The notes under the pieces are model-generated. The model saw nothing but the letters and a program-made list of their open reading frames with translations. It was not told where the DNA came from and made no database searches. From IMG/VR virus record IMGVR_UViG_3300042340_000194, positions 1-64,000 of that record: a stretch of 64,000 nt of DNA. The stretch is one strand, 5' to 3'. Position 1 is the stretch's first letter; every line of letters starts with the position of its first letter. Positions 25,431 through 33,270 of this stretch are shown one piece after another. This stretch comes from a virus. The translations under genes and the position numbers were made by a program.

Positions 25431-26345
25431 TCAGGGTTTGTCCATCGCCATGACGGATCGGGGGAAGTAGATGGCCACACCACCGTGGCGGGCGTGGGCG
25501 GGAACGGTATATTCCAGGCCCTGGAGTTGAGGAGGGAAAAACTCCAGTGGCTGGGGGAGGTGCATCTCCAGCTTGTCCGGGTTACGCTCATAGGTCATGA
25601 TCCGGTCTTTAGACAAGAACCCGCCGGATTTAGAGGCAGTAAGCTCATTGATGGGTTCAATGTCCTTAATAACCTCGTTGGTATCGAGGAAAAACTCCAT
25701 GACAGTGGTGTCCGAAGCCGTCCCGAGCTTCATTGTGGAGATCTTTCGGAACACATTGTACGGAACCAACATGGTGTCTGGTTGTTCTTTCATGTTGCTG
25801 TTCTCGACGATCCGGGTTACCGGTTCATTGAGGAGTTCGAGAACTTCATCGGCGGTGATGCCGGACGTGTCGAACCACTTATCAGGTACGATCTTGTCGA
25901 GTTGATCGGAGTTGAAGAAGCCGCGAAGGCCGGCAGCAGGATCTCCGAAGTAGGAAATGCGCTGCATAGTTTCTTCATAGACGCGACGCACAGCGTTAGC
26001 GCGGCGTTGCTCCAGGTTTGTGTTGGGGACTTCAGCCGCAGCTCGCAGCTCCTGGACGGTGTAGCCAAAGCTGGAACCGTAGGATTCAACCTTGTGGGTT
26101 ACTTCCTTACGGAACACATCAGCGCGGGGGAGATCCTTTGCCTTATCGGCAATTCGCCGCATGGAGCCTTGTTGGTCGTAGATCCTATATGTGTAGGAAT
26201 CCTTCCCATTAGACACCTCGCTGTTAATGGGGAGTACACTAGCGTATTTGATGTCGGCATACTCGACTTCAAAAGCCCTAGTGATGATATGCTCAAGTTC
26301 CCTCGCGAGGAAGAAACCGTGGTTGTCGAGGCGTTGGTTGGACAT
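25431..26345 (-). CDS. Major capsid protein (DUF2184, HK97 fold)
   Basis: FLARELEHI, DLPRADV, FGYTVQELRAA, YFGD...GFFN, HGGVAIYFP; strong codon bias. Confidence 0.9.
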   Translation of the reverse strand: MSNQRLDNHGFFLARELEHIITRAFEVEYADIKYASVLPINSEVSNGKDSYTYRIYDQQGSMRRIADKAKDLPRADVFRKEVTHKVESYGSSFGYTVQELRAAAEVPNTNLEQRRANAVRRVYEETMQRISYFGDPAAGLRGFFNSDQLDKIVPDKWFDTSGITADEVLELLNEPVTRIVENSNMKEQPDTMLVPYNVFRKISTMKLGTASDTTVMEFFLDTNEVIKDIEPINELTASKSGGFLSKDRIMTYERNPDKLEMHLPQPLEFFPPQLQGLEYTVPAHARHGGVAIYFPRSVMAMDKP

Positions 26346-26417: not shown

Positions 26418-27041
26418 TTAGGTGTCGGCGGTGAAGGTCGCGGCGGCCATCTCGATCTCCAAGACAGCCAGGCCAGCCCCGGTGGTCTTGGTGATCCAGC
26501 GGGCACCGTTGGTGAACAGGGTCGTCCGGGTGCCGGAGGCTGTTTTGCAGAACCTTCCCAGGAATGCCCCGGCCACGGTGCCGGAGTGGTCGGTATCCCA
26601 GAACCTGACAGCATCCGTCAGGGCCACGGCCTCGGTGACGTAGACCCAGATTTGGCCCCGGCGGATGACGTTGAGCGACTTCCGGTTGGGGTAGCCAGGC
26701 CGGCCATCGGCGGCCAGGTTGGTCCCTGGGATCCCGGCCGATAGATAGCTGGCATTGCCGGAGGTGACCCCTTCGAATGTGAAGGAATCCGCCAGGATGC
26801 CGAAGTTGCCGGTGACCCCGGTGGAGAGGGTCATGGCGTTATCGTCTCGACCGCCGGCTGTATCTACCTGCACCAAGGCTCCAAACGGCAGCGCCGCGCT
26901 GGTCTGATTGATCCCGGTGAAAGAGTCGTAAGAGTTGAGATTGGCCAGCATCCCTTCATGGGCACCAGCGGAAGTCAGGGGGTATGAACCTTGAACCCCG
27001 ATAGGGGAGGTTACTGTGGTTGGGGTGAAAGTTACAGGCAT
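26418..27041 (-). CDS. Head decoration/cement protein
   Basis: Between DUF2213 and MCP; LPFGALV, NVIRRGQIWV, GARW. Confidence 0.75.
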   Translation of the reverse strand: MPVTFTPTTVTSPIGVQGSYPLTSAGAHEGMLANLNSYDSFTGINQTSAALPFGALVQVDTAGGRDDNAMTLSTGVTGNFGILADSFTFEGVTSGNASYLSAGIPGTNLAADGRPGYPNRKSLNVIRRGQIWVYVTEAVALTDAVRFWDTDHSGTVAGAFLGRFCKTASGTRTTLFTNGARWITKTTGAGLAVLEIEMAAATFTADT

Positions 27042-27089: not shown

Positions 27090-28400
27090 TCATCGCCTCT
27101 TAGAAGCAGTCAGCGGTTTCTGCCAACTATTGTTGGTTTTTTGCTTGTAGCTATCGGAGGATGCTGCAGCATCGCGCCGTTGAACCCCGCGAAGGGCCGT
27201 GCGCAGCTTGCCGGTGGAATCGGCAGCATCGGTTCGGGGAGCTGGTTCGGCCTCGGGGGGATCTTCGGCATCAAGCGTGGCCAGGGCCCCCTCAACCCGG
27301 CCCCTCATTTGGGCGACTTCCATCTCCTCATCTGGGGCCTCACCGAAGATGTTTTCGTATGCTTGGACATACAACTCATCGGCCTCGATGCCGTCGAAGA
27401 CGAAATCGTCTTCAAAGGCGGGTGCGAGGAGTTGAAGAGTGTCGAGGCGGGCGGCTACTAGGGTGTCCAACCGGGAGGCTGGGATTTGAGCGAGAACCGC
27501 GTCGATGTTGTCTTCATCGAGGTGAATCTCACTGGGTTCCCCGGCATCAATCGTGGCCTGGAGCCCATCGGCCCGCCCTTCGGCGATCTCCTTCTCAGCC
27601 TCCAGGTCGGAAAAATCACTCTGCAGGGTATTTAGCTTTTCCTGCAGAGTGGAATTAGCAGTGCGCAGTTCAGTAAGGGCCTTGCTGGAATCCCTCACAT
27701 AGGCTTGCACCAGCGGAGCATATTCAGAGGCAACCTCAACATCGACTCCATCGAGATTGATACGGGCCATAACGGGGTTCGCGGGGGGTACGGGCTCGGG
27801 GGAATCGAGGAGTGCTTGATCAAAAGATACCGCTGCCGTAGAATCCATTCGATCTAACAGCAACCTGACTTCTGGGCCAGCACGTCCTTTAGGGACAATG
27901 GCGATGTGGTTGACGCGGATATTGCGTTGGACACCGTCATAGGACTCGCCTGATGGTGTTTGACCGGGGGTAGGGTCATAATCGACTCGGTAGCCGGCGG
28001 ATACTTCTACAGCGTGATCGGGAGAATCTTTACGTTGGATGTTGTCGATGGATTTTTGGTCAGTGACAAGAAGCGCGACTTCAACAAAACCGTCGCTGAA
28101 GTGGACATGCGAGCCGGCATGCCCGATTTGATACATCTTTGTATTATCCGCATCAAGGAGCTGCGGAGGATGACGCCAAGTAACTGGCTTCATCCCGAAG
28201 GATGCTAGGGTTTCTGGCTTTCCTACTTCCTCTTCCGGGCGGTACTCAGTTTCGACCCTGCCGTCAGCGCGGCGATATTTCTGGAGGCCAGTGCGGGCGG
28301 TGCGGGCCCGGACCTGGAGGTATCCCGACTCCGGGTCGATCTTGCAGCCGACGATAGGCAGCGAGAGGAAGTCGTATCGGGTAGCTGTTGCTAGGCTCAT
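27090..28400 (-). CDS. DUF2213 prohead protease/scaffold
   Basis: GYL...ARTGLQKY...EYRPEEEV...KPVTWRHP...EVSAGY...YDGVQRNIRVNHIAIVPKGRAG; acidic coiled-coil C-terminal half. Confidence 0.9.
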   Translation of the reverse strand: MSLATATRYDFLSLPIVGCKIDPESGYLQVRARTARTGLQKYRRADGRVETEYRPEEEVGKPETLASFGMKPVTWRHPPQLLDADNTKMYQIGHAGSHVHFSDGFVEVALLVTDQKSIDNIQRKDSPDHAVEVSAGYRVDYDPTPGQTPSGESYDGVQRNIRVNHIAIVPKGRAGPEVRLLLDRMDSTAAVSFDQALLDSPEPVPPANPVMARINLDGVDVEVASEYAPLVQAYVRDSSKALTELRTANSTLQEKLNTLQSDFSDLEAEKEIAEGRADGLQATIDAGEPSEIHLDEDNIDAVLAQIPASRLDTLVAARLDTLQLLAPAFEDDFVFDGIEADELYVQAYENIFGEAPDEEMEVAQMRGRVEGALATLDAEDPPEAEPAPRTDAADSTGKLRTALRGVQRRDAAASSDSYKQKTNNSWQKPLTASKRR

Positions 28401-28436: not shown

Positions 28437-29486
28437 CTAGTAGCTTTTTAACAAAGCGGTCTCTAAACTTCTGTAATAACCTTTTACAACTTTGTCTACG
28501 TGATCGGTTTCATAAGTGCGCAGCGCGTTTTCTAGAGGATCCCATTGAGGAGCCCAACGCCTTTCAAATGTTTCTACTGCGTATTCTGATAAACCTACGC
28601 GGCGTGGTACTTGAGTAAGCTCGTTGATGAAATCGCGGGCGCTAGTTCGATTTTCTGTAGCGAACTCAGCTAGGCCGAAGTCGATGAATTTAAGGCTTCT
28701 GGTTTTTGGGTTAAACATTATGTTTTTTAAGTGCCCATCGTTGTGTACGAGACCACTAATGTGTAAAGAGCGATAGAGGTCTAACATTTGGCGTTTTAAC
28801 TGTAGTGGTGCGGTGTATTTAAGCGAGAAAATACTAGAACTTACCCCATGCGTAGATAAAGGGGAATAATTGTTCAAGTGCTCCATGACCAATACCCGGT
28901 CAGTAGCTTTGTATAGCTGAGGGGATGGCACATTATTGATGTTAGCGTGCCTTAGTATCTCACCTTCAGGGAGTAAGCTTTCTGTGGGGCCGCTCAGGAA
29001 TTTATTAGGTGTCCCCCCGAGGTCGTTGTTCTTTAAGTATTTTATACCGTATTTATTAGACGGGTGGACAACATAATTACCGTAAGCACCTTGGCCCCCT
29101 AGACATCGTGGAGTCGGAACAAAGTCATCTTCTCTAATCCAGTGATCAATCTTGGATGCTGCACATGCAATTGCGTTGGCTTTCTTGTTATCTTCAAAGA
29201 CATCCCACTGTTTGCCGCGCTTCCGCGCCTCAGCTTCGATCCGATCCCAGTCCTCACCAGGGGCGGTGAATCCCTTCCAATCGGGGTCGCGGCGAACGAA
29301 ACGGCGGGCGGCGGAGATGCCTAGGGCTGCGATCCCGGCCCCAAGGGCGACTTTGCCGATCAGGCTCGGGGTGATTGTTGGATTAGAACTGGGCGCAGTG
29401 GTCTTTTTGGAGCATTTCTTGTTGTCTGGTATGCCTGACGCACCGCATTTTTTGTCGAATCTTAGTGAAGCGGTGGTTATGGGCAT
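28437..29486 (-). CDS. Ser/Thr-type protein kinase with Cys leader and TM helix
   Basis: GGQGAYG, YGIKY, LVMEHL, HNDGHLKNIM, FIDFGLA; leader RFDKKCGASGIPDNKKC; TM VALGAGIAALGISAA. Confidence 0.85.
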   Translation of the reverse strand: MPITTASLRFDKKCGASGIPDNKKCSKKTTAPSSNPTITPSLIGKVALGAGIAALGISAARRFVRRDPDWKGFTAPGEDWDRIEAEARKRGKQWDVFEDNKKANAIACAASKIDHWIREDDFVPTPRCLGGQGAYGNYVVHPSNKYGIKYLKNNDLGGTPNKFLSGPTESLLPEGEILRHANINNVPSPQLYKATDRVLVMEHLNNYSPLSTHGVSSSIFSLKYTAPLQLKRQMLDLYRSLHISGLVHNDGHLKNIMFNPKTRSLKFIDFGLAEFATENRTSARDFINELTQVPRRVGLSEYAVETFERRWAPQWDPLENALRTYETDHVDKVVKGYYRSLETALLKSY

Positions 29487-29540
29487 GATTACCGGTGGTA
29501 TGTATGCTATTCTAGCGAGGCACCTGCGTGGACACTTGTC

Positions 29541-30014
29541 TTGGGTTTTATGGATAGAGAGACTCTGGTCAAGCTAAATGGCGATGTGGCGCAGTTAAAA
29601 GGTATTATGCAGCCTTTTAATGATGCTGCCGCTCAGGCCAATAAAGGTTTTATTGAGCTTGGGCGTACTCTGAACTTAGAGGCCCAACGGCGCAATGCCA
29701 TCTTGCGAGCATTGTTTTATTCATCGGTCAAGGCCGCATCACCTACTATTGGGCGTAAACGTCGCGCCCGCAGGGCTAGGGGAAGGCGGCTAGAGGTCAA
29801 GGCAGGAAATAAAACCAATAACGAGTTTCAGTCATACGACAGTGTCTGTCCTCCGATTAGTTCAAACCATATTGCGATCAGCGAAGATGGCGAACTCAGT
29901 TTTGTTTACCGTGCTCATATTGAGCACACATCAGGAGTGACTCCTGATGGGTCAGAATATAAGGCCATTGTAAGATCAATAAAACCAATCAGTGCTAGGA
30001 TTAAGGCGTTATGA
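29541..30014 (+). CDS. Hypothetical protein with an Arg-rich motif
   Basis: ASPTIGRKRRARRARGRRL; first gene of the + strand island (start could be ATG 29550). Confidence 0.65.
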   Translation: MGFMDRETLVKLNGDVAQLKGIMQPFNDAAAQANKGFIELGRTLNLEAQRRNAILRALFYSSVKAASPTIGRKRRARRARGRRLEVKAGNKTNNEFQSYDSVCPPISSNHIAISEDGELSFVYRAHIEHTSGVTPDGSEYKAIVRSIKPISARIKAL

Positions 30015-30280
30015 TATCCCCACTCCTCATGATAGACTTTGTAACCGTACAAACCACTGTAGCATTTGAGTTGTACATGGACGAACCCGCTGGTGGGTCT
30101 AGCCTAGAGGATCTAAATACTAGGATCTTAGTATTTAGAGAGAAGCTTATCGAGATTTATGGTTGCAATCCTGCAATTCTACGTGTAGTGGAACACCCTT
30201 TCTGGATACTTAATCCAGTGGCGGATCAGCCATTTAATCTAGTTAAACCACGCTCTTATTTTTCAAACTGCCATGTTTAA
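30011..30280 (+). CDS. Hypothetical protein
   Basis: ATGA-coupled to the upstream gene and overlapping the downstream gene. Confidence 0.55.
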   Translation: MISPLLMIDFVTVQTTVAFELYMDEPAGGSSLEDLNTRILVFREKLIEIYGCNPAILRVVEHPFWILNPVADQPFNLVKPRSYFSNCHV

Positions 30281-30614
30281 GGACGACCTAGGGATAAACA
30301 TACAAAATGCTGCTTGCAGTACTACAGGCATGACTGCTGATGAAATGCTTGAACTACTAAATGAGCCGGTTACGCGCATCGTAGAGAACTTTAACATGAG
30401 GGAGAAACTGGACACTATATTGCTCGATTCTAAGCAGTTTGCGTCTATATTATCTGAACGCACCAAGGCGGCAATGAATCGCGTCTATCACAATACGAGA
30501 CCTAACTATCTACCTATCTTTGTTAACGCCTCCCCCACTATTGGACGTAAACGCCGCAACCGTCGCGCTCGGGGGCGTAAACTAGCAGCTAATCGCCAAA
30601 AAGCTTGTGCTTAA
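30273..30614 (+). CDS. Small protein carrying a copy of a major-capsid segment + Arg-rich motif
   Basis: TADEMLELLNEPVTRIVENFNMREKLDT vs MCP TADEVLELLNEPVTRIVENSNMKEQPDT; ASPTIGRKRRNRRARGRKL. Confidence 0.75.
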   Translation: MFKDDLGINIQNAACSTTGMTADEMLELLNEPVTRIVENFNMREKLDTILLDSKQFASILSERTKAAMNRVYHNTRPNYLPIFVNASPTIGRKRRNRRARGRKLAANRQKACA

Positions 30615-31212
30615 GAACGACATCTGGATAGGACAGCAAGCTGCCGCTGGGATGATCGAGCCCTATCAGGAATGTCTGTTGCGCCGCATTGAAACCTGGG
30701 AGGATAGCATTCTACAAGTAAAGCCGGTGTTGTCTTTTGGTGTTAGCAGTTATGGCTATGACATCCGGCTGTCGGCTCAGGAATTTATGACCTTCCGCCA
30801 TGTCCCTGGCACGGTGATGAACCCCAAGCGGGCCAATCCCGCCAACCTGGAGCCGGCCCCTCTCCATCAGGACGAGGATGGGCGCTACTTCATCCTGCCG
30901 GCGCATACCTACGGCCTCGGGGTAGCTCTGGAGAAATTGCGGGTGCCGCCGAATATCACTGTGATCTGCTTGGGGAAAAGCACTTACGCCCGGTTGGGGA
31001 TCATTGTGAATACCACGCCGGCAGAAGCGGCATGGGAGGGGCACCTAACCCTGGAGTTCAGTAATTCTTCTGGTGCTGATTGCCGTATTTATGCCGAAGA
31101 GGGTATCTGCCAACTGCTTTTCTTTGAGGGGGATCCCTGTGAAACTACTTATGCGGATCGGAATGGTAAATATCAATATCAGCCGGAACTGGTGACATTA
31201 GCAAGGGTTTGA
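30607..31212 (+). CDS. dcd: dCTP deaminase
   Basis: SFGVSSYGYDIRL, GKSTYARLG, TPAEAAWEGHLTLE, YAEEGICQ, YADRNGKYQ. Confidence 0.95.
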   Translation: MLKNDIWIGQQAAAGMIEPYQECLLRRIETWEDSILQVKPVLSFGVSSYGYDIRLSAQEFMTFRHVPGTVMNPKRANPANLEPAPLHQDEDGRYFILPAHTYGLGVALEKLRVPPNITVICLGKSTYARLGIIVNTTPAEAAWEGHLTLEFSNSSGADCRIYAEEGICQLLFFEGDPCETTYADRNGKYQYQPELVTLARV

Positions 31213-31242
31213 TTCTTACTTTATTGTGAAACATAATTAAGG

Positions 31243-32133
31243 CTATCGCAGCCGATTTCCCACACGTCTTGTCAGGCGGGGCGCATTACCTAAGTACCTA
31301 TCCCAGAACTTGTTGTAGGCTTGCTGTGTGGGAGCGTTTTTAGTAAGCCCGGTCTCCTTGATCAGATCAGAGAATTTCCTATGTTCTATAGGATCTAGTT
31401 TATTCAGCATGTAGTTAATGTGGTCCATATCATTGCGTAGACCTGAAGTAGGCATGAATTTGATCGGCTTGGCGTAGCCCCAGTCGATCAATTTAACATC
31501 GCCATCCTTGACCATAACATTACCCAGGTGCATGTCTCCATGTGCGTACCCGGCCTTATGCAGCTTCGACATCTCTAAGACAAACTGCTTCGCGTAGCGG
31601 GCCTTCTCCTGCTTGGTTCCGCTTTCTACGATTTTGGTTAAGTTCTTGTACCCGTCCATGTACTCGATTTGAGTTATAGATCGCGCCGAATCGACAGCTA
31701 GGACATTCGGAGTGTTGATGCCCTTATCGTGTAGTTTGGCCTGCAGCGTGACTTCACGCAGGAACTGTCGCCGCCCGACAAGGGTTTTCTTGAAGTTTGT
31801 CTTGAAGACTGATTTACGATCCGGGGAGACGTGAATGGCCCCGGCATAACCTTTGGCTAGGAACTTACTACCTTTGGGGAGATTTTGCGGAGTTGATAAT
31901 GCAATAGCTTCCTTGAAGGCACGTTCAATTGCAGGAGTCCATCTTCTCCTGTTGAGCACTCCTACAAGAACGACTCCTGTAGCTACGGCTGCGGTGGTTG
32001 TTCTCGGGGTTATGATACCTCCTGAGCTGCTTGCAGGGGCTACGCTTTTTCCACACTTCTTGTTCGCTGCAATGCCGGATTTCCCGCACTTCTTATCCAG
32101 GCGCAGCCGCGCTGCGGTCAGTTGCAATTCCAT
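31243..32133 (-). CDS. Ser/Thr-type (RIO/Bud32-like) kinase with Cys leader and TM helix
   Basis: AKGYAG, VFKT, FLREV, IEYMDG, HGDMHLGNVM, LIDWGYA; leader RLDKKCGKSGIAANKKC; TM AAVATGVVLVGVL. Confidence 0.85.
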   Translation of the reverse strand: MELQLTAARLRLDKKCGKSGIAANKKCGKSVAPASSSGGIITPRTTTAAVATGVVLVGVLNRRRWTPAIERAFKEAIALSTPQNLPKGSKFLAKGYAGAIHVSPDRKSVFKTNFKKTLVGRRQFLREVTLQAKLHDKGINTPNVLAVDSARSITQIEYMDGYKNLTKIVESGTKQEKARYAKQFVLEMSKLHKAGYAHGDMHLGNVMVKDGDVKLIDWGYAKPIKFMPTSGLRNDMDHINYMLNKLDPIEHRKFSDLIKETGLTKNAPTQQAYNKFWDRYLGNAPRLTRRVGNRLR

Positions 32134-32444
32134 TTCCGTAACGACTTATTGATCCGTGAATCCTGGTTATTAGCGGTTTTCGCGCTGGTTAGCTTACGCT
32201 TCATTCCCGACATGCGGGCACAGAACCTCCGTCGTCTTTCTGCTCTCGCTGATCCGGGTTTGAGCTTGGAGGGGTCGGTCGTTACCGCGAGGGAGAGCTT
32301 CGAGCCTGGATGTTGCTTGCGGTAGGAGGCGATGCCTGCGGCGTTAAGGCCGCCCTCGGGGTTTTTGCCTTCCTTGCGCTGCCAAGCGGGGGATTTGTCA
32401 AGGCGGATGGTTAGAGGTGTGAGTAGTCCCACCTCAGTTACCAC
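32118..32444 (-). CDS. DUF6321-like small basic protein
   Basis: AWQRKEGKNPEGGLN...RRRFCARMSGMK.KLTSAKTA...SRINKSLRKWNC, preceded by RLD. Confidence 0.7.
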   Translation of the reverse strand: MVTEVGLLTPLTIRLDKSPAWQRKEGKNPEGGLNAAGIASYRKQHPGSKLSLAVTTDPSKLKPGSARAERRRRFCARMSGMKRKLTSAKTANNQDSRINKSLRKWNCN

Positions 32445-33270
32445 TAAAGAGCCTGCGCTTCTGCCTAATCAGCCCGATTTGGGTTTTACGCGCAGCGCGG
32501 CGTGTTGAAGCAACCCCAGCTTGGGCTTTAGCCATTGTTGTAGATACTGCAGCTTTTGTCGCCTTCCGTACTCTCGCTTTAGATGGAGGTATAGCGCCTT
32601 GAGACAACATCCCCCGAGCTTGTTTGTTATTCATAGACCGTGCCATACTGGCTTGTGAGTTGCTAACTTGATTTGTCCATGGGTCTGGAATGCCACCAGC
32701 GGAATTGGTAGGGCGAGGATTGGACATGCGGCTAGTCACACGTAAGTTTTTCGCAACTCTTAGGTTAGACATAGCATTTTTCTGCATTCCTCGATATTTC
32801 ATAGCACCCACTGTACCTGCAGCAATACTACCAGCAACGGCGGCTACTTTAAGGCCGGTCTGGACGTTTTCATTACCAAGGGAGGATTTTACAGTACCGA
32901 CTAAGCCTTTAGTACACTTTTTGCCTTCAGCAATGCCGGAAGCACCGCACTTCTTGTCCTCTCTTACACTCAACACACCACGGATATAATTCTTACTGTG
33001 TTTATTGATTCCAAGTTCACAAGCATCAAGATATTCCATAGGAGTAAGTACAGCGTCCATTGCTGCTTTAGCTGCGCAGCCACAAGAGCCACTCTTCTTA
33101 CCCTTCTTCATGCAAGCGGCACAAGGCTTCTTACCTTTCCCGTGGGGGGCATCACCGTACTCGGGGGACTCTCCCTCCTCCATCTTCGAAGACTCCATTC
33201 CTTTCCCCGCAGCGCTGCCCTCGGCGGCCTTTTTACGACCCTTTTTAAGGAATGCTGCGGGGATCGGCAT
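32434..33270 (-). CDS. Basic protein with internal Cys leader and TM helix
   Basis: CAAC..CGC N-terminal part; REDKKCGASGIAEGKKC; TM VAAVAGSIAAGTVGAM; K/R-rich C-terminus. Confidence 0.7.
   Translation of the reverse strand: MPIPAAFLKKGRKKAAEGSAAGKGMESSKMEEGESPEYGDAPHGKGKKPCAACMKKGKKSGSCGCAAKAAMDAVLTPMEYLDACELGINKHSKNYIRGVLSVREDKKCGASGIAEGKKCTKGLVGTVKSSLGNENVQTGLKVAAVAGSIAAGTVGAMKYRGMQKNAMSNLRVAKNLRVTSRMSNPRPTNSAGGIPDPWTNQVSNSQASMARSMNNKQARGMLSQGAIPPSKARVRKATKAAVSTTMAKAQAGVASTRRAARKTQIGLIRQKRRLFSGN

Follow-up and report, generated by a model that had tools for sequence, protein, structure and literature searches.

A small arginine-rich phage protein that carries a fragment of the major capsid protein

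ORF B, a 113-codon gene beside the head module of a freshwater virus, encodes about 35 residues homologous to the virus's own major capsid protein (MCP), followed by a conserved helix and an arginine-rich tail. The reading that we favour, with a probability of roughly 0.6, is that B is a translated member of a nucleic-acid-binding family and that its MCP-derived piece is a scrap from the capsid gene of a sister phage, brought in by recombination and serving no capsid role. The stretch of DNA that was analysed (64,000 nucleotides; hereafter, the window) comprises the first 64 kb of an IMG/VR virus record that is 75.6 kb long and is rated as complete. Sequencing runs containing window DNA are lake and freshwater metagenomes; the dCTP deaminase of the window resembles its counterparts in phages of Cylindrospermopsis, Nostoc and Synechococcus, and the capsid gene shows likeness to that of Synechococcus phage S-CBS4. 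ORF B lies in a plus-strand cassette of four genes (A–M–B–dcd) that is flanked by two kinase-like genes (Table 1). The original prediction had pointed to the Arg-rich tail of B and to its orientation opposite to that of the minus-strand head module, correctly in both respects.

Table 1 Coordinates of the features discussed, in the window unless a contig is given.
Feature	Position	Strand	Remarks
MCP	25431-26345	-	PF09950, E 3e-51
Resident MCP counterpart of the piece, residues 160-194	25764-25868	-	inside MCP 25431-26345
Cement protein	26418-27041	-	head module
DUF2213 protease/scaffold	27090-28400	-	head module
Kinase-like gene	28437-29486	-	head module
ORF A, 157 aa, paralogue of B	29541-30014	+	N-terminal helical module, arginine-rich motif, then extension
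Arginine-rich motif of ORF A	29736-29786	+	same motif as B
Head-maturation-protease (DUF2213) piece in ORF A extension	29886-29984	+	PHROG 530, E 1e-5; 32 residues
ORF M, 89 aa	30011-30280	+	no family match (Pfam, PHROGs)
ORF B, 113 aa	30273-30614	+	variable N-terminal part, conserved helix, arginine-rich helix
MCP-derived piece, B residues 17-51	30321-30425	+	predicted A-domain helix pair, next loop and first strand of HK97-type fold
Conserved family core, B residues 49-85	30417-30527	+	predicted helix 53-72, pLDDT 71-83
Arginine-rich motif ASPTIGRKRRNRRARGR of B	30528-30578	+	invariant GRKRRxRRARG; starts predicted helix 88-112, pLDDT ~85
dCTP deaminase (dcd)	30607-31212	+	last gene of A-M-B-dcd cassette
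L117 family member, 154 aa	L117:460-987	+	94 residues of own portal
L117 portal gene	L117:3325-5292	+	2.3 kb downstream of family member, same contig

Residues 17–51 of B and residues 160–194 of the resident MCP are identical at 26 of 35 positions, including a perfect 14-mer (LELLNEPVTRIVEN), and other codons are used at 13 of the 26 identical residues, 8 of them within the 14-mer; a recount returned the same figures as originally claimed. The DNA of the two stretches is 72% identical with a longest identical run of only 7 nt, so recent gene conversion with the resident MCP was rejected. BLASTP aligned B with the MCP over 56 residues (54% identity, E 2e-16), far above chance, of which only ~35 residues are homologous: the flanks of the alignment match at 2 of 13 (residues 4–16) and 2 of 8 positions (residues 52–59), and the MCP flanks of the segment are highly conserved among real MCPs, yet unmatched in B. 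The claim of a copied capsid segment consequently stands for these ~35 residues and does not extend to the flanks that BLAST adds. Both head-protein profiles that matched B did so weakly and in part (PF09950, profile positions 107–156 of 251, 17.2 bits against a cut-off of 26.8; PHROG 264 (major head protein), profile positions 179–226 of 321), and, judged by this partial coverage and the PF09950 score under its cut-off, B is a carrier of a capsid-protein fragment, not a capsid protein.

In an AlphaFold2 model of the MCP (pLDDT 61 overall and 85–89 in the region of the segment), the segment consists of two helices (165–172 and 174–180), a loop and a strand (191–194). It comes after a long spine helix (111–133) and is thus predicted to form the start of the A-domain of an HK97-type fold. 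Among solved capsid proteins, the best sequence match of the MCP was PDB 8hdt (E 4e-41), presumably the capsid protein of cyanophage Pam3. The model of B has no tertiary fold (pTM 0.26) and pLDDT values of 46–59 in the MCP piece, and a complex prediction of the MCP with B gave a score of 0.01, which counts neither for nor against an interaction.

The codon differences had been taken originally as a sign that the peptide, rather than the DNA, is under selection in B. Nei–Gojobori counting over the 35 codons of the piece gave pS 0.78 (saturated) and pN 0.13 between B and the resident MCP, and nearly the same values (pS 0.73–0.78, pN 0.10–0.12) between the resident MCP and its orthologues in sister phages (L023 and L024; 88% protein identity). 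Given that orthologous capsid genes diverge to the same degree over these codons, capture from a sister-phage MCP suffices and selection within B need not be invoked, which removes the ground for that claim. The combination of a kept peptide and scrambled codons fits best with constraint that dates from before the piece left its MCP. The same caution applies to any comparison of a fragment with a resident gene: 'same peptide, other codons' is no evidence of selection if sister phages with synonymously saturated orthologues exist.

The piece is equally close (26 of 35 residues) to four MCP lineages and has the family consensus where the resident MCP deviates (for example, M in ADEM). No donor above 26 of 35 residues was found among 39 MCP clusters (drawn from 5.8 billion proteins) and none above 72% DNA identity among 77 IMG/VR MCP loci; the 13-residue core peptide is encoded in IMG/VR by the phage cluster of B only. 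The sister-capture model thus leans on an unsampled lineage. Recent neutral capture from a related MCP had been named as the alternative to a functional copy; capture is indeed the better fit, although the near-identical donor that a recent event implies was not found. The nearest sister phage (L099/L024, MCP 88% identical) has an 87-aa family member near its terminase that is without any MCP piece. In the course of events that we propose, ~105 nt of a sister-phage MCP gene would have been copied into B by illegitimate or homology-anchored recombination, from a donor at roughly the distance of today's 88%-identical MCPs. Nearly all of the divergence would then have arisen while both copies were working capsid genes, hence the conserved peptide and scrambled codons, and the piece would have been left to drift after capture.

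Close homologues of B (75–98% identity) are confined to one species-level phage cluster, within which the MCPs are 98–99% identical. A scan of metagenome contigs for relatives of B added one further close copy (L018), a scan of genome contigs found none and a tblastn search of 50,697 GenBank phages returned no match; homologues of the chimeric ORF thus exist, in one species-level cluster only, and near-identical donor DNA does not appear beside them. The island between the kinase-like gene and dcd is a variable spot of this cluster, with alleles of ORF A that are 47–51% identical or absent, of ORF M that are 79% identical (L004–L007) or absent and of B that are 90–98% identical. The dCTP deaminase of L004–L009 (213 aa, 12 of them in an insertion near the N-terminus) is ~85% identical to that of the window and the genes at 31243–33270 are 99–100% identical in L005 and L006, a difference that places a sharp recombination boundary at the cassette.

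Rearranged forms of B occur within the cluster. In P0003 and P0060, the N-terminus of ORF A is joined in frame to B at two other points, and L008 and L009 hold an A–B fusion with a 35-nt tandem duplication, which shifts the frame such that the ORF begins anew precisely at the Met of the piece; P0060 is this same fusion minus the duplication. The duplication (L008:10005–10075, at the same place in L009) sits at the junction of the A–B deletion fusion. P0004 retains only the last third of the MCP piece and P0005 (84 aa) has none of it. The C-terminal 65 residues are intact in all of these forms (P0003, P0004, P0005, P0060, L008 and L009). Natural variants without part or all of the MCP piece mark it as dispensable, and the island is recombinationally unstable.

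Where the piece is present, 13 of 15 positions that are invariant or near-invariant among 19 aligned MCPs are kept. The two exceptions are S183 and P189, each found in 19 of 19 MCPs: B has F or C in place of the former and L in place of the latter, and variants in the cluster also replace MCP positions T191, N173 and E167. Across ~15 distinct B sequences, 9 of the 35 sites in the piece are variable, compared with 12 of 34 core sites and 4 of 28 tail sites; the piece thus changes at a rate similar to that of the remainder of this fast-evolving protein. Five B genes with DNA show ~2 non-synonymous and 2–3 synonymous changes in the piece, counts too small to test; the replacement/silent ratio among the few B genes with DNA is ~0.1–0.3 in the piece versus 0.4–1.0 in the rest, likewise from tiny counts. 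From these substitutions, the piece looks to have drifted after capture under relaxed or different constraint.

The part of B that does not vary leads to a wider group of proteins. A HMMER search of 1.84 billion representatives retrieved five distant relatives (P0045–P0049), which align to residues 50–110 of B (38–48% identity, E 6e-5 to 5e-4) and have in common a helix of the form F-A-x-x-L ... Y (helix 53–72 of B) and an invariant G-R-K-R-R-x-R-R-A-R-G. Residues 88–101 of B fit this motif preceded by P/S-T/S/P-I/F/L, as do nine of nine aligned members and 48 distinct IMG/VR sequences. These last came from a scan of IMG/VR with the back-translated motif, in which the pattern matched 74 viral stretches compared with 15 for a control of equal composition (the reversed motif); 61 family ORFs, 48 of them distinct, were extracted from the matches, which lie on dozens of viral contigs, many of them cyanophage-like. 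The conserved helix, ~15–35 residues before the motif, is clear in the B-like subgroup, and other subgroups have a different helix. At least 20 family members were without any Pfam or PHROG family beyond portal, protease and MCP pieces, and the motif string had no match in the literature. ESM Atlas matches were discarded, being only generic helical look-alikes (AAA lid domains). On this sequence evidence, ORF B belongs to an undescribed family of small arginine-rich phage proteins. Composition and the predicted helix make nucleic-acid binding the likely function of its constant part; the unit of one helix and a subsequent arginine-rich helix with GRKRRxRRARG would bind nucleic acid, while the N-terminal part would be exchanged freely and rebuilt repeatedly by recombination.

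The N-terminal halves of family members are indeed unrelated modules in many combinations, and two further virion proteins have contributed pieces. The extension that follows the motif in ORF A, which occurs in the window only, contains a head-maturation-protease stretch. This stretch shows 39% identity to the resident protease and as much as 45% to those of more distant phages, and the ORF A alleles of relatives are without it. Just before it, residues 97–117 of ORF A form a partial second copy matching the same protease stretch. On L117, an unrelated GC-rich viral contig, a family member matches its own portal over 94 aa (57% identity, E 3e-25; PHROG 146 (portal), E 1e-7), and a 45-codon core of this match has 86% DNA identity (pS 0.35, pN 0.066). 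The copied stretch is the portal's most conserved region, and L145, with an identical copy in L164, carries a shorter part of the same portal piece. An N-terminal module found in several members (QPYQERFLAAL) was considered as a terminase or helicase N-terminal piece and had no significant match. The MCP, portal and protease pieces each stem from the most conserved stretch of the virion protein concerned. On a purely neutral model, such an origin would have to come from homology-anchored recombination or detection bias alone; illegitimate recombination anchored by homology would draw preferentially on the most conserved parts of structural genes nearby, which would explain the conserved cores.

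The recurrence of such pieces also underlies a functional reading, in which B presents a capsid mimic on a basic tail, as a decoy for a host capsid sensor or as an assembly modulator or targeting tag on the phage's own or a rival's capsid, and in which the family, more generally, displays the most conserved stretches of virion proteins. We regard this reading as unlikely. Highly conserved stretches of three virion proteins (MCP, portal and head protease) in one small family are what it would predict, and most cluster members keep the piece, including a 94-aa form that starts exactly at the piece's Met, with a slight excess of silent over replacement changes. Host sensors of the kind it calls for exist, given that Avs proteins of bacteria sense the MCP, portal and terminase (bioRxiv 10.64898/2026.01.04.697583). 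However, the divergence pattern is explained without selection in B, MCP-invariant positions are broken and natural variants lose the piece. The segment is a helix–loop–strand packed into the fold of the A-domain in the MCP, whereas the model of B is of low confidence there. Family genes lie in or beside structural modules, moreover, which makes nearby genes the likeliest source of scraps. For a decoy or dominant-negative role of B in particular, no test speaks and the probability is low, the recurrence with portal and protease keeping the idea alive. We give slightly less credence still to the broader proposal that the GRKRRxRRARG family is a dedicated carrier of the most conserved virion stretches (the MCP A-domain helix, the portal stem/tunnel region and the prohead protease core), fused to a tail that binds nucleic acid. 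The family would then serve either as a decoy or competitor directed at host defences that recognise these proteins by pattern, or as a tag by which the basic tail enters heads during their assembly.

Capture of a scrap by a translated gene, the reading that we prefer, would have B expressed from the A–M–B–dcd cassette, in which starts overlap stops through all four genes (ATGA, ATGTTTAA and GTGCTTAA). ATGA joins the start of ORF M to the stop of ORF A, ATGTTTAA joins the start of ORF B to the stop of ORF M, and the stop of ORF B overlaps the GTG start of dcd; these overlaps argue for translation of B from its first ATG. A working protein that starts further downstream (for example, at Met42 before the conserved helix), leaving the MCP-like stretch as an untranslated or irrelevant recombination leader, appears improbable to us. 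It would accord with the distant relatives, which are 55–87 aa long and start just before the conserved helix, with P0005 and the frameshifted L008 and L009, which show that the upstream part can be lost, and with the model of B, which has no confident structure before residue 50. Against this, the overlap between the first ATG and the ORF M stop is seen not only in the window but also in L004–L007 and L018, and no stop interrupts the frame through the piece in any 113–114-aa form or in P0003 and P0060, which are in-frame fusions. A promoter and terminator scan of 29300–31400 gave signal at shuffle level. In metatranscriptome run X20, the cover of which is too sparse to bear on expression, a few contigs fell on the MCP, protease, kinase and dcd genes and none on B.

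Several other features of the island were recorded. ORF M was examined as a relic of a cement gene, with the island as a colinear remnant of a foreign head module, and no similarity was found. It contains a 14+14-nt palindrome without spacer at 30112–30139 (TCTAAATACTAGGA/TCTTAGTATTTAGA, one mismatch), and several bases of this region differ in relatives. The two kinase-like proteins (28437–29486 and 31243–32133, both on the minus strand) and a 278-aa protein (32434–33270, minus strand) have in common an N-terminal module of ~60 residues (40–47% identity), the remainder of the proteins being different, and this module is found again at other sites in relatives.

Family genes recur in three settings. 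They directly precede and overlap dcd in the window, L140 and L150; they lie between terminase and portal in L129 and L167 and upstream of the portal in L117; and in 15 of 59 loci they stand immediately upstream of a P4-type tyrosine integrase (L104, L107, L108, L111, L114, L116, L119, L122, L125, L134, L135, L151, L156, L162 and L165). The integrase beside the motif gene has the composition Arm-DNA-bind_3 plus Phage_integrase and is often overlapped by the motif gene; in L114 and L165, a tRNA-Met gene lies 200–500 nt further upstream on the other strand. The complete 75.6-kb record of the window's genome had no PF00589 match.

These integrase-adjacent loci bear on whether the motif is conserved as protein or as DNA. 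The two motif copies of the window (in A and B) have 9 synonymous and 1 non-synonymous codon differences among 16, and the residue before the motif stays hydrophobic (I, F or L) by way of first-base changes, which together argue for conservation as protein. That the motif is instead a recombination or att-like DNA site for the neighbouring tyrosine integrase, with the mosaic ORFs as by-products, seems to us very improbable: the position before integrases, position-specific Arg codons (such as AGG, used by 35 of 48 sequences at motif position 9) and shuffled sequence on both sides of the motif would suit such a site, but the two copies in the window differ almost entirely by silent changes, conservation at the protein level extends, in distant relatives, to the ~35 residues ahead of the motif, no contig scanned has a second distant motif copy in the manner of attL/attR, the window genome has no integrase and no Rfam family or tRNA was found over the motif. 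One copy of the octamer CTCGGGGG lies at window position 30568, within the A-R-G-R codons of the B motif; the family consensus codons at A-R-G-R are GCC AGG GGG CGG.

We consider the carrier family a more interesting object than the MCP piece that led to it. The carrier is a family that lacks annotation, has an arginine-rich motif invariant in all of its 11 residues and has been fused repeatedly to pieces of virion genes, and it recurs at three positions: before dCTP deaminase, before tyrosine integrase and in the gap between terminase and portal. If the pieces are functional, phages would be presenting parts of their conserved proteins in a new manner; if they are not, the family offers a clean natural example of small phage genes assembled from scraps.

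Among the closest known systems are capsid-derived triggers of abortive infection, which the original prediction also named. The Gol peptide of T4 gp23 acts with Lit, and the MCP is the trigger of CapRel; as in B, a short stretch of the major capsid protein is the element of interest, but those stretches are parts of the full capsid protein that host defence senses, whereas B holds a separate copy. We know of no free-standing copy of a capsid piece, encoded by a phage, that acts as a decoy. Excisionases (recombination directionality factors), which usually occupy the slot directly upstream of an integrase, resemble the family in being small basic proteins, and the family takes that very slot in its integrase-adjacent loci; unlike them, it matches no known excisionase family, and in the window, whose genome lacks an integrase, the gene precedes the dCTP deaminase. 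Peptides that bind nucleic acid through an arginine-rich motif (lambda N, P22 N and HIV Rev) are similar in their short helical Arg/Lys run, with RRNRR in B as in the Rev motif, and B is likewise a small, fast-evolving and largely unstructured viral protein with a confidently predicted C-terminal helix. In contrast to N, in which the motif is N-terminal, that of the family is C-terminal or internal, and its lack of variation across 11 residues is uncommon among such motifs; the likeness is one of composition and predicted structure. Finally, the family behaves like mosaic accessory genes of phages in its intragenic module boundaries, its variable presence in near-identical genomes, its in-frame fusions at several junctions and its 35-nt tandem duplication, and differs from them in joining one constant C-terminal unit to many N-termini (at least 48 distinct sequences), some of which are internal pieces of virion genes.
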